A stretch of 32,000 bases of DNA from Candidatus Saccharimonadota bacterium (GCA_030429145.1 JAUIDC010000001.1:300001-332000), one strand, 5' to 3'. Positions 26,034 through 31,105 are shown, numbered from the stretch's first letter. Numbers and translations are program-made. Notes: generated by a model not told the origin, from the letters alone.

Positions 26034-26056
26034 AAAAAACCCGCATTATAGCGGGT
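26034..26056 (-). terminator. Rho-independent terminator ending the rRNA operon
   Basis: Minus strand ACCCGC-TATAAT-GCGGGT followed by T6, about 140 nt downstream of the 16S 3' end. Confidence 0.7.
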
Positions 26057-26195
26057 CTTTTCATGTATCGTATAAGGATATATGAACATTTGGACTAATA
26101 GTATAGCAAAGAGACTAGTCAGAATAAGTTTGGGTTCTCTATGAAAGAGATGATTCTACCTCGATTGGTAGGTTTAATTAATTTATTCCTAATGT

Positions 26196-27681
26196 TAGGA
26201 AAGTGGTCCATCCCCACGTTCCCGTAGGGATACCTTGTTACGACTTCACCCCAGTCATCGATTTCCTTTTCAATCTGCAGAGCAGATCTTCAAAGAACCT
26301 CAACTCCCATGGTGTGACGGGCGGTGAGTGCAAGGAACAGGGACATATTCACGGCAGCATGGCTGATCTGCCATTACTAGCAATTCCAACTTCATGTAGT
26401 CGAGTTGCAGACTACAATCCGAACTGAGGGATGATTTGGAGTTTTGCTCCACCTCGCGGCTTAGCTTCTCATTGTGCATCCCATTGTATGATCTATGACG
26501 CCCTAGACATAAGGGGCATGAGGATCTGACGTCATCCTCTCCTTCCTCCTGGTTGCCCAGGCAGTTTCTCTAGACACAGTAACTAGAGATGAGGGTTGCG
26601 CTCGTTTCTAGACTTAACTAGATACCTTGCGGCACGAGCTGACGACGACCATGCACCACCTGTGTACCCCGCGTATTGCTACGCTAACCGAGTTTCCCCG
26701 ATGACAAAGTACATGTCAAATCTAGGTAAGGTTCTTGGCTTATTATCCAATTAATCTAGATCATCCACTGCTTGTGTGTTCCCCCGCCTATTCCTTTGAG
26801 TTTCGGTCTTGCGACTATACTACCCAGGCGACTCGCTTAACCCGTTAGGTTGCAGTACCCACGTCCGAAGACATAGACACTTAGCGAGCATAGTTTACGG
26901 TCTGGACTACCGGGGTATCTAATCCCGTTTGCTACCCAGACTTTCGTCTCTCATCGTCAAGATAATCATAGTGAGCTGCTTTCGCTTTTGGCATTCCTTC
27001 CGATATCAACGAATTTCACCTCTCCACCGGAAATTCTACTCACCTCTGAAAACTTCCAGACCTGTAGTATCCACTCCCTTTCCTCGGTTGAGCCGAGGTA
27101 TTTGAAAGTAGACTATCAGGACCGACTACAGACTCTTTACGCCCAGTAATTCCGGATAACGCTTGGGACCTACGTATTACCGCGGCTGCTGGCACGTAGT
27201 TAGCCGTCCCTTATTCGTGGGGTACCGTCATTCGTCTTCCCCCAAAAAAGAAGTTTACACACCGTAATGCTTCATCCTTCACGCAGAATCGCTGGTTCAG
27301 GCTTTCGCCCATTGACCAATATTCCCCACTGCTGCCCCCCGTAGGGGTATGGACCGTGTCTCAGTTCCATTGCGGCCGGACATCCTCTCAGACCGGCTAC
27401 CCGTCATAGGCTTGGTGGGCTATTACCCCGCCAACTACCTGGTAGGCCGCACCCTCCTCCTAGAGCAAAAAACTGTTTCCTCATAGTATTCTCATTTCTA
27501 TGAGCGTATCGGGATTTAGCTACGTCTCCGTAGTTGTTCCCGTCTCCAGGGCAGATTAAGTACGTGTTACGCGCCCGTTTGCCACTAACTTCATCGAGTA
27601 TTGCTACCCAAAGAAGTCCGTTCGACTTGCATGTGTTAGGCGTTCTGCTAGCGTTCATCCTGAGCCAGGATCAAACTCTTC
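26196..27681 (-). rRNA. rrs: 16S ribosomal RNA
   Basis: RC contains AGAGTTTGATCCTGGCTCAG (near 27661-27680), GTGCCAGCAGCCGCGGTAATAC (27174-27195) and AAGTCGTAACAAGGTA near the 3' end. About 1486 nt, ends approximate. Confidence 0.95.
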
Positions 27682-27772
27682 ATAAAAAATCCTGACTAAG
27701 TCTCTTTGCTATTCTATCAGCTATTAATGTTCATCATCAGCTTACGCTGACGAGCAGGCTATACCTACTAAA

Positions 27773-27888
27773 GGTGGCATCAATCTACTTTCCCAGGGCC
27801 ATTGACCCAAGTATCATTGACCGGATAAGGCTTAACTTCTGTGTTCGGAACGGGAACAGGTGTTTCCCTCATCCGCATCGATACCACC
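27773..27888 (-). rRNA. rrf: 5S ribosomal RNA
   Basis: RC reads GGTGGTATCGATGCGGATGAGGGAAACACCTGTTCCCGTTCCGAACACAGAAGTTAAGCC...CCTGGGAAAGTAGATTGATGCCACC. The terminal helix closes the molecule. Confidence 0.9.
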
Positions 27889-27946
27889 ATTGGTAGACAT
27901 AACTACTAATCCCATAGTGCAGACAAACATATCATATTTTTAAAAG

Positions 27947-30896
27947 AACAACAAGCCCCTCGATCTATTAGTACACCTCTGCTAAACACATCGCTGTGCT
28001 TACACATAGTGCCTATCAAACCCATAGTCTCTGGGAGATCTTACTCCTACATTGCTGCAGGATGGGCAATCTAATCTTATGGCTAGTTTCCCACTTAGAT
28101 GCTTTCAGCGGTTACCTTTACCGAGTGTAGCTACCCAGCGGTGCCGATGGTTCGACAACTGGTTCACCAGAGACTCGTTCATTCCGGTCCTCTCGTACTA
28201 GGAACGACGCCATTCAAATTGCCTACGGTTACAGTAGATAGGGGCCGAACTGTCTCACGACGTTCTGAACCCAACTCGCGTCCCGCTTTAATGGGCGAAC
28301 AGCCCAACCCTTGGGACCTTCTACAGCCCCAGGATGCGACGAGTCGACATCGAGGTGCCAAACGGAGTCGTCGATATGGACTCTTGGACTCCATTAGCCT
28401 GTTATCCCCGGAGTAGCTTTTATCCGTTGAGCGGATTCCCTTCCACTTGGAAAATCCGGATCACTTTCGCCTAGTTTCCTATCTGTTCGACCTGTTAGTC
28501 TGACAGTTAAGCTTGCTTATGTGAATATACTTTCCATACGGTTTCCATCCGTACTAAGCAAACCTTTGCACGCCTCCGTTACTTTTTAGGAGGCACCCGC
28601 CCCAGGTAAACTGTCCACCAGGCACTGTCCCCCACTTCGTGGGGTTAGTAACGCTACATAAACTGAGTGGTATCTCACTGGTGACTCCACCGTGCCCAAA
28701 GGCCGGCTTCAAAGTCTCCCACTTATACTGAGCAGTCTATGCCACGTTACAATACCTAGCTACAGTGAAGCTTCACAGGGTCTTTCCGTCTAGCTGTAAC
28801 TACCCGGCATTTTTACCGGGATTGTAATTTCACCGAGTCCGAGATTAAGACAGTGTGGAGATGGTTATGCCATTCATGCGGGTCGGAACTTACCCGACAA
28901 GGAATTTCGCTACCTTAGGACCGTCATAGTTACGGCCGTCGTTAACTAGTGCTTAACTCGCGAGCTTGCACAAGCGAGCTTAACATTCTAGCACTGGACA
29001 GGCATCACCTCCTATACATCCACTTACGTGTTAGCAGGAAGCTGTGTTTTTGGTAAACAGTCCCCCCCACGACTTTAACTGCGGCCTGACATTGCTGCCA
29101 GGCAGGGTTTATCCCGAAGTTACACCCGTTAATTTGCCAAGTTCCTTAATCACCGGTTTTCTCGATTGCCTTGGTATACTCTACCTGCCTACGTGTGTCC
29201 GTTCTGGGTACGGGCTGCGTTCAGATTAGCGCTAGTAGGTTTTCTCGGCACCAGAACTATGTAAATTCCACCTTACGGCAGTCTTGGTATAGCTCGACTT
29301 TTTTACTTTGAGCGGATTTGCCTACTCAAAGCGCACCAGCTAATGCTGGATTCGTCTTACTACTACAACTTGAATCCTTATCAAGCTTACACATGTCCCG
29401 ATGCGTCACTACATCACTCTGACGCAGGGGCCGGAATATTAACCGGCTGTCCATCGGTTTCCCCTTTCAGGTATACCTTAGGTCCCGCCTAACCCTACGC
29501 TGATGAACATTGCGTAGGAATCCTTAGGCTTTCGGCATATAAAATTTTCATTTATAGTCGTTACTTATGTCAGCATTTTTACTTCTATACAGTCCACCAT
29601 ACGCTTACGCGACAGCTTCATCCCGTATAGAACACTCTCCTACCGCACAACACTAATGTGTTGGCTTCCGACGTCGGTAGATAACTTGAGCCCCGTTACA
29701 TCTTCGGCGCATTCCCGCTTGTCTAGTGAGCTGTTACGCTTTCTTTAAAGGATTGCTGCTTCTGAGCAAACCTCCTAGATGTCATAGCAGGAAAACATCC
29801 TTTTCCACTTAGTTATCATTTGGGGACCTTAGTCGGGAATCTGGGCTGTTACCCTTTTGGCCATGAAACTTAGCTCCCATAGCCTAACTCCATAACTTTC
29901 CTTACAGCATTCGAAGTTTAACAGGGTTTGGTAAGACCTCTCGATCCCCCTAGCCCTACAAGAGCTCTACCTCTGTAAGATCATCGTTATAGGCTAACCC
30001 TAAAGTTATTTCGGAGAGAACCAGCTATCACGTTATTCGATGAGCTTTTCACTCCTAGGCACAAGTCATCCAAAGGACTTGCAGCTCCAACTGGTTCGGA
30101 CCTCCAGGCTGGTTTCCCAACCCTTCATCCTGCTCATGCCTAGCTCATAACGCTTCGGGTCTAATGACAGCAACTAATCGCCCTATTCAGACTCGCTTTC
30201 GCTCCGGCTCCGGCTGTTACTGCCTTAACCTTGCTACTATCATTAACTCGCTGACCCATTCGTCAATAGGTACGTGGTGACTCGGCCGAAACCGAGCTCC
30301 CACTCAATTGTGAGCTATATATTTCAGGTTCTATTTCACTCCCCTTCCTGGGGTTCTTTTCACCGTTCCCTCACGGTACTATGCACTATCGGTGTAGAAA
30401 AGTATTTAGCCTTACCCAGTGGTCTGGGTGGATTCACACAAGATTTCACGTGTCTCATGCTACTTGGGAGTGCACGACAGAGACAACACATTTTCACTTA
30501 CGGGACTATAACCCCCTCTGGTAACGCTTCTCAACGTTTTCTGTTAACATGTTGTTTTGTAACTCTGCACCGACCTGCTAGGGCCGATATGTACATCCCA
30601 CAACCATCTCTCTCGCAACGGCTAGCACCTTGGCACGAGAGGATTTTGGGCTGTTTCCCGTTCGATCGTCTCTACTGAGGAAATCTCTTACGATTTCTTT
30701 TCTTCGTGGTACTGAGATATTTCACTTCCCACACTTGCCGCCATTTGCATCCTGCTGTACAGGATAGGTTTCCCCATTCGGACATCCCCGGCTGATCACG
30801 GTTACTGGCACCTGACCGAGGCTTTTCGCAGCCAATCACGTCCTTCTTCGGCTTTTCTACCCAAGGCATCCATATATAGCTCTTAATAGACTTGTC
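27947..30896 (-). rRNA. rrl: 23S ribosomal RNA
   Basis: RC 5' region reads ...TATATGGATGCCTTGGGTAGAAAAGCCGAAGAAGGACGTG...CCGAATGGGGAAACC. Sarcin-ricin loop AGTACGAGAGGACCGGAATGAAC lies at 28177-28199. About 2950 nt, so there is no room for large insertions. Ends approximate. Confidence 0.95.
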
Positions 30897-31077
30897 GTCT
30901 TTTAAAAATATGATACGTTTATCTGTTAATGGTCCACATCTGCATCGCTAACATTCTAAAGCATAGAAAAGTCAGACACCCCTATATCTATTGCTAGGTA
31001 GAGAGGCCATCTGACCTTGTTCTCGTTAAAGAAAATCCTACGATTTATCTTGTTAGTTTTCTCGAGCAGTGACTACG

Positions 31078-31105
31078 AGTATAGAGAACCCCACTGCCAT
31101 TTCAA
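31078..31105 (-). promoter_or_regulatory. Predicted sigma70-type promoter of the rRNA operon
   Basis: Minus strand TTGAAA (31100-31105), 16-nt spacer, TATACT (31078-31083), about 180 nt upstream of the 23S 5' end. Confidence 0.35.

Follow-up and report, generated by a model that had tools for sequence, protein, structure and literature searches.

A 32,000-nucleotide stretch of DNA, hereafter the window, from an assembly labelled Candidatus Saccharimonadota bacterium (GCA_030429145.1, JAUIDC010000001.1:300001-332000) carries a ribosomal RNA (rRNA) unit in which the genes stand in the order 23S-5S-16S on one strand. In nearly all bacteria, 16S is transcribed ahead of 23S, and a common assumption is that this order is important for balanced and ordered ribosome assembly. 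Comparison of the window with five further assemblies indicates that the three genes are most likely transcribed as a single RNA, with one predicted promoter region upstream of the unit, one predicted terminator downstream and no terminator between the genes. There is good reason to regard the unit as a single-copy-type rRNA operon of a UGA-recoded, SR1/Absconditabacteria-like patescibacterium, with a gene order that is typical of its lineage.

All three genes were found to be full-length by Rfam cmscan and lie on the minus strand, as do the features of the rRNA region described below unless stated otherwise. The 23S gene occupies positions 27947-30897 (RF02541, LSU; model positions 1-2925; 2519.6 bits), the 5S gene positions 27772-27888 (RF00001; full length; 83.7 bits) and the 16S gene positions 26196-27686 (RF00177, SSU; full model, 1-1533; 1378.2 bits). 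The spacers are short, with 58 nucleotides (nt) between 23S and 5S and 85 nt between 5S and 16S, and the distance from the 3' end of 23S (27947) to the 5' end of 16S (27686) is 260 nt, 5S included. An initial annotation of this DNA had proposed the same order on one strand, and the Rfam coordinates fall within 1-5 nt of the ones that it gave. Its statements that spacer tRNAs are missing and that no 16S gene precedes 23S were likewise confirmed: ARAGORN and Rfam place all six tRNA genes of the window within 6.1-11.5 kb, and the Rfam search of the whole 32 kb revealed neither a 16S gene upstream of 23S nor a 23S gene downstream of 16S. The rRNA unit is flanked directly by protein genes on both sides. 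The divergent upstream neighbor, annotated initially as a glycosyltransferase gene (31279-32000, plus strand; GT4/GT1 family), runs off the end of the window, and its assignment agrees with translation under genetic code 25, in which UGA encodes glycine, and with the Pfam search. The truncated protein matches Glyco_transf_4 with E = 3e-5, which is below the gathering score, and its full-length homologues carry Glycos_transf_1 (PF00534)/PF13692.

These flanks bear on the possibility that the permutation is only apparent and that the window covers the central part of a tandem of two canonical operons (16S-23S-5S-16S-23S-5S). Such tandems do exist, with ~100 nt from 5S to the next 16S in the loci L001, L003, L007 and L008. 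However, protein genes directly adjoin the window unit at both ends, and the 21-kb loci of two relatives, L019 and L022, contain no further rRNA gene, either in the nearly 5 kb past 16S or in the >11 kb that precede 23S. The tandem explanation was rejected on these grounds, and we assign it a vanishingly small probability.

To find relatives of the permuted unit, genomes were scanned with a pattern composed of a 5S core motif, a gap of 111-187 nt and the 5' end of 16S. This junction scan gave three matches in 185,579 GTDB species representatives and five in a metagenome collection; the allowed gap misses spacers longer than ~120 nt, and the number of matches is not an estimate of frequency. 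Two loci, L019 and L022, were reached only via homologues of the flanking glycosyltransferase. Rfam annotation of the retrieved loci revealed 23S-5S-16S, all on the same strand, in five more assemblies of independent origin, thus completing a comparison with relatives that the initial annotation had proposed. These are L002 (GenBank JAGOPC010000001.1; 112-kb contig; 5S-16S spacer of 99 nt; 95.1% 16S identity to the window), L004 (IMG Ga0196970_1000042; 219 kb; 97 nt; 95.5%), L019 (GCA_965188785.1; 99 kb; 122 nt; 89.2%), L022 (ENA ERZ15185023; 166 kb; 153 nt; 90.8%) and L005 (IMG Ga0256842_1001902; 16 kb; 83 nt; 78.3%). With 16S identities to the window from 95.5% down to 78.3%, the five loci belong to different organisms.

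Flanking genes are common to the window and three of the five further assemblies, and the synteny RNase H - PrsW - rRNA - glycosyltransferase is shared by the window and L019. The glycosyltransferase gene adjoins 23S in L004, L019 and L022, and also in L013, L014 and L020; in L011, a gene for a protein of 1253 amino acids lies between the two. The contigs of L011, L013, L014 and L020 break inside 23S, which starts beside protein genes with no 16S upstream. No adjacent rRNA was found at other loci with a glycosyltransferase homologue, namely L021 and L010 ('Absconditabacterales', 'gcode 4') and L015 to L018, and the named SR1 genomes are thus not linked to the window by synteny. The most divergent member of the set, L005, has the operon 23S-5S-16S-tRNA x10, in which the ten tRNA genes (positions 4878-6060 of that locus) follow 16S directly without a terminator between them. 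Next come rplJ, rplL and rpsB, with UGA taken as a sense codon; the open reading frames (ORFs) of this locus need code 25, and a search with its S2 protein gave no relatives that carry an organism name.

The recurrence of the order decides the question of misassembly. The artefact would be a chimeric join between the end of a 23S-5S contig and the end of a 16S contig, and short-read assemblies of metagenomes are notorious for breaking or being joined wrongly at rRNA genes. L009, an independent assembly of short reads from the same organism, in fact breaks inside the 3' end of 16S, while the part that it covers is 100% identical to positions 26253-23349 and confirms the downstream junction. However, six organisms, sequenced in different projects and put together with different assemblers, have the order on contigs of 16-936 kb that carry unique sequence on either side of the unit, and the 5' strand of the 5S-16S spacer pairs and covaries with the 16S trailer, which would not be the case in a chimera. 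Moreover, the same order was reported independently for three SR1 genomes, SR1-OR1, RAAC1 and ACD80, together with the failure of 16S-to-23S PCR on oral SR1 (Camanocha and Dewhirst 2014, J Oral Microbiol 6:25468; PMC4192840). Its presence in five further independent assemblies excludes a chimeric junction, and an assembly artefact appears highly improbable. The permuted arrangement is real and lineage-typical, and it was already published in 2014.

The promoter region provides the first argument for a single transcript. The initial annotation had pointed to a promoter-like element, TTGAAA-16-TATACT, at positions 31078-31105; it is of the sigma-70 type, matches the consensus at 10 of 12 positions, is the best promoter-like match on the minus strand and is conserved in all six loci. 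An A-rich tract resembling an UP element, AAAAAAGTCAAAAAATCT (31107-31124), lies directly upstream of the -35 box, and its AAAAAGT..AAAA part is invariant in the alignment of the six loci (A1). The common design of these regions can be written as AAAAAGTnnAAAA(A/T)..CTTG(A/C)A(A/T)T, 16 nt, TATnnT or, in short form, as an A-tract, CTTGAAAT, 16 nt and TATnnT. The core, CTTG.A.T plus TAT..T, is invariant at the fixed 16-nt spacing in all six loci, even in the distant L005. Exactly one such motif occurs per locus; it precedes 23S by 92-208 nt in every case and is never found ahead of 16S. The 26-nt A-tract/promoter motif has one occurrence in the window versus none in shuffled sequences.

At the other end of the unit, the strong intrinsic terminator noted initially after 16S is supported by folding. 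It spans positions 26034-26061 and consists of the hairpin GACCCGC-TATAAT-GCGGGU followed by U6, with a folding energy of -23.9 kcal/mol (z = -8.3). A terminator composed of a hairpin and a T-run follows the 16S stem in five loci (the window, L002, L004, L019 and L022), with stem and loop sequences that differ between them, and L005 has its tRNA array in place of a terminator. A good promoter-like site, TTGACT-16-TACAAT (10/12; 25972-25999), lies right after the rRNA terminator of the window and precedes a gene for a 157-amino-acid membrane protein (25471-25944) that has no family match above threshold and is kept in the closest relatives only.

Each large rRNA is enclosed by its own long helix. 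For 16S, the 5' strand (27689-27738) fills most of the 85-nt 5S-16S spacer, and the 3' strand (26080-26125) starts ~70 nt past the mature 3' end of 16S. In the core of this stem, 27712-27691 is complementary to 26122-26103 with one bulged nucleotide, and the helix extends to ~27738/26080. The duplex energy in the window is -61.7 kcal/mol, compared with -23.8 +/- 4.0 kcal/mol for dinucleotide shuffles. In five loci, the 16S duplexes range from -54 to -62 kcal/mol versus approximately -21 to -27 +/- 4 kcal/mol in shuffled sequences, that is, 8-9 standard deviations lower; the L022 duplex, calculated without a shuffle control, has -40.9 kcal/mol in a 75-nt segment and -79.4 kcal/mol over the whole spacer. 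RNAalifold predicts 30 pairs for the 16S stem, with compensatory changes in 12 of them, and the outer helix (27738-27726 with ~26092-26080) is kept with a different sequence in the more distant loci. For 23S, the 5' strand (30897-30925) pairs with the 3' strand (27920-27946) in a stem that is continuous with helix 1. Its duplex energy is -42.2 versus -18.8 +/- 3.5 kcal/mol in dinucleotide shuffles, and compensatory changes occur in 8 of the 33 pairs predicted by RNAalifold. Both flanking stems had been recognized in the initial annotation, and these energies bear them out at a greater length than was stated there. In canonical operons of E. coli and B. subtilis, such flanking helices are cut by RNase III.

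The 5S-16S spacer is the place where a division into two transcription units would have to be sought. A scan of five loci (the window, L002, L004, L019 and L005) detected no terminator-like site on the strand of the operon within the 5S-16S spacer. Two small hairpins were predicted right after 5S in the spacer fold of the window (27734-27768), the second of them with a GUAA loop; they are not followed by a U-run and thus do not constitute an intrinsic terminator. A hairpin of different sequence was recognized by eye, from sequence only, at the same place in the spacers of L002, L004 and L005. The hairpins after 5S may act in processing or protection of the 5S 3' end.

Of the two features that the initial annotation had denied to this spacer, the terminator is indeed missing, while the denial of a convincing promoter has to be qualified by a weak promoter-like match. 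This match, CTGATG-18-TAGAAT (27711-27740; 8/12), with a TGn extension before the -10 box (TGnTAGAAT), scores below the threshold of the tool and was obtained in a relaxed scan. Several points weigh against a single transcript and have to be set beside the evidence for it. The weak match, with its TGn, stands in the 5S-16S spacer itself, in the 5' strand of the 16S stem. The consensus scans returned about as many promoter-like sites in real as in shuffled sequence, so that the presence or absence of a match alone is not strong evidence. Finally, the case for co-transcription is one of sequence logic.

On this basis, two adjacent units could be proposed, in which 23S-5S is transcribed from the upstream promoter and 16S is transcribed wholly or mainly from a promoter in the spacer (TGATAGAAT, 27719-27711), an arrangement that would let the subunit rRNAs be dosed separately. 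Promoter-like matches occur at the same place in L002 (CTGACA-17-TAGCAT, 9/12) and L004 (TATACA-17-TAGAAT, 9/12, with TGn), and 16S is known to have its own promoter in many bacteria with split rRNA genes (see also Brewer et al., bioRxiv 10.1101/705046). However, L019, L022 and L005 have no such match at this place, and matches of this kind are about as frequent in shuffled sequence. In the window, the match falls within the 5' strand of the 16S stem, and its conservation is explained by that of this strand; transcripts starting here would lose the outer part of the covarying stem. As any start set by the weak internal -10 box would be downstream of the outer 16S helix, the RNA must enter the spacer from the 5S side. 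In the scanned loci, the missing 5S-16S terminator would lead to read-through anyway, and the conserved promoter class with the A-tract and CTTGAAAT was found only upstream of 23S. Two separate units are thus unlikely, although a minor internal start in the spacer may exist. The single-transcript reading of the initial annotation is favored by the comparison of loci, which combines one promoter per locus, a spacer free of terminators and a covarying 16S stem, and we infer both a single primary 23S-5S-16S transcript and its cleavage by RNase III.

The following scenario can be proposed for the expression of the unit. Transcription would start at one strong sigma-70-type promoter (the A-tract plus TTGAAA-16-TATACT, 31124-31078), proceed through the leader, 23S, 5S, the 85-nt structured spacer and 16S, and stop at the intrinsic terminator (26061-26034). 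In the course of transcription, the flanks of 23S would pair with each other and those of 16S likewise, providing two long independent helices, which are the usual substrates for precursor excision of the RNase III type, and 5S would be trimmed from the intervening piece. Since each large rRNA has an excision helix of its own that forms locally, the gene order could be permuted without loss of processing. The sole consequence of the permutation would then be that the large-subunit rRNA emerges before the small-subunit rRNA.

Further elements surround the promoter. Approximately 50 nt upstream of the rRNA -35 box, in the intergenic stretch that separates the unit from the divergent glycosyltransferase gene, alignment A1 contains a conserved element of ~30 nt, TTTTTCACAAAAGTATGGTCAAAACTCGAGCG (31155-31188), with the pattern TTTTCACAAnA..GGTCAGAA..CGAG. 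The window, L002, L004 and L019 all have it, L022 and L005 retain parts of it, and it is possibly a binding site for a regulator. The 23S leader (30898-31077) is longer than in L002 and L004, where it comprises only ~65 nt, and includes a structured insertion of ~105 nt (31070-30932; minimum free energy of -39.8 kcal/mol, z = -2.9) that is specific to the window and absent from these close relatives.

Two motifs of the unit resemble boxA (..CTTTAACAA..). The first of them, CATTAACAGATAA (30919-30931), is located at the base of the 23S stem, and its TTAACA(G/T)A part is conserved in all six loci; the second, CATTAATAGCTGA (27717-27729), lies upstream of 16S. The pattern CATTAAYAGMTRA matches the window twice, at these two sites, with a chance expectation of 0.57 and at least two matches in 9 of 100 shuffles. 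The motifs may play a role in the rRNA unit, but they are short and marginally above chance, and they overlap the paired bases of the stems. Another candidate boxA, the window-specific TTCTTTAACGAG in the leader insertion, was dropped, as the relatives do not have this insertion.

The assignment of the host agrees with the initial suggestion of a Gracilibacteria/SR1 bacterium. The window encodes a tRNA with the anticodon UCA (11442-11515, minus strand), which ARAGORN calls tRNA-SeC, and its ORFs lengthen when UGA is read as sense under code 25; together, these features point to a code-25 genome. The best named relatives of the RNA polymerase subunit RpoA (2537-3532) belong to candidate division SR1, including RAAC1_SR1_1, and to Candidatus Absconditabacterales, with 61-66% identity. 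There are counterindications. Some equally close RpoA matches are labelled Peribacteria, and the lineage is named after protein relatives at 61-66% identity. Furthermore, the published SR1 primers do not fit the 16S of the window exactly, with one mismatch to the forward primer and three to the oral-SR1-specific reverse primer. Among the GN02 primers, AF29 and AF29-X1 have 3-4 mismatches, and AF25 has one. The host is likely a patescibacterium of the SR1/Absconditabacteria type that does not belong to the oral lineage.

Several other observations concern translation and the remaining genes of the window. The tRNA-Ala(UGC) gene, which is found in the 16S-23S spacer in most bacteria, is solitary here (10708-10784, minus strand) and lies ~15 kb from the rRNA unit; a tRNA scan found no tRNA-Ile(GAU) in the window. 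The 3' tail of 16S (26196-26215) reads ...GGACCACTTTCCTA and does not contain the canonical CCUCC core of the anti-Shine-Dalgarno sequence. This core is likewise missing from the 16S tails of L002, L004, L019 and L022, and the tail of L005 reads GGATCACTTATCTA. A 16S tail of this kind suggests weak or altered use of Shine-Dalgarno sequences. Finally, a prepilin-type N-terminus (..FTLIEMLIVIVIIGIL..) was observed in the products of three genes (18584-19141, plus strand; 20637-21857 and 22719-23417, both minus strand), consistent with the type IV pilus-like systems that are common in such episymbiotic bacteria.

With regard to evolution, the permutation extends down to 78% 16S identity and into a separate UGA-recoded lineage, represented by L005, where the same promoter design is accompanied by the ten tRNA genes. 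On balance, we lean towards the view that the permutation is old and has become fixed in a clade that extends far beyond the three reported SR1 genomes. Perhaps the code-25 bacteria share it as a derived character. As for its origin, one can speculate that tandem canonical operons served as the evolutionary intermediate, which arose by duplication and then lost the outer 16S and the outer 23S-5S. Speculatively, this duplication-loss route would yield exactly 23S-5S-16S, with a 16S that keeps its own helix.

If the unit is indeed one transcript, a deep bacterial lineage makes its large-subunit rRNA first, from a single promoter, and represents a natural experiment showing that ribosomes can be assembled co-transcriptionally without the near-universal 16S-first order. 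The arrangement suggests that selection preserves the linkage and stoichiometry of the rRNA genes and not their order. There is also a practical implication: long-amplicon methods that run from 16S through the internal transcribed spacer to 23S, and the corresponding operon databases, cannot recover organisms with this order.

The permuted unit can be compared with several known systems. In the canonical rRNA operon, exemplified by E. coli rrnB, the promoters are followed by a leader with boxA, 16S, a spacer tRNA, 23S, 5S and the terminators. The window unit resembles it in having three linked genes on one strand with one promoter region and one terminator, in the separate long helices that flank 16S and 23S and, possibly, in boxA-like motifs before each large rRNA. 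It differs from the canonical 16S-23S-5S order by a circular permutation that places 23S first and 16S last, as well as by the lack of spacer tRNAs and by a terminator that follows 16S rather than 5S.

Tandem canonical operons, as in L001, L003, L007 and L008, share with the window a 16S gene located ~100 nt after 5S on the same strand, whereas only the tandems, and neither the window nor its relatives, have a 16S gene ahead of the first 23S and tRNA genes in the 16S-23S spacers. These four loci were matched by the junction scan described above and come from delta-proteobacterial metagenome-assembled genomes or metagenome contigs; their inter-operon gap of ~100 nt leaves hardly any room for a terminator and a promoter.

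Split rRNA genes, with 16S apart from 23S-5S, are known from Rickettsiales, Helicobacter, Thermus and many Patescibacteria. Brewer et al. treat rRNA genes as unlinked if more than 1500 bp separate the nearest edges of 16S and 23S, or if no 23S occurs within 1500 bp after 16S. The 16S of the window is not followed by 23S, and the directional test, applied to long reads, would score it as unlinked; by contrast, the window has a gap of 260 nt with no terminator, and the nearest-edge test (>1500 bp) classifies its genes as linked. In our reading, these definitions do not include gene order, and the permutation would thus not be flagged by such surveys.

The closest known system is the SR1 operon described by Camanocha and Dewhirst (PMC4192840). 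A full-text literature search for '23S-5S-16S' returned only this paper, with no later treatment found, and the rRNA gene order is not mentioned in the papers on Vampirococcus and on unlinked rRNA genes. The two systems have the same order on one strand, the host is UGA-recoded in both cases, and SR1 bacteria are the best named protein relatives of the window. The authors noted that an amplicon with a 23S forward and a 16S reverse primer offers a selective handle for the group (PMC4192840), and the window unit, like theirs, is unreachable by 16S-to-23S PCR. On the other hand, the window represents a different species-level genome, with an RpoA ~64% identical to that of RAAC1 and a 16S that misses the oral-SR1 primers by 1-3 bases. 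The 2014 paper gives the gene order only, whereas the anatomy of the unit, including its promoter, leader, stems and terminator, the comparative argument for one transcript and the wider phylogenetic spread, down to 78% 16S identity, come from the present analysis.

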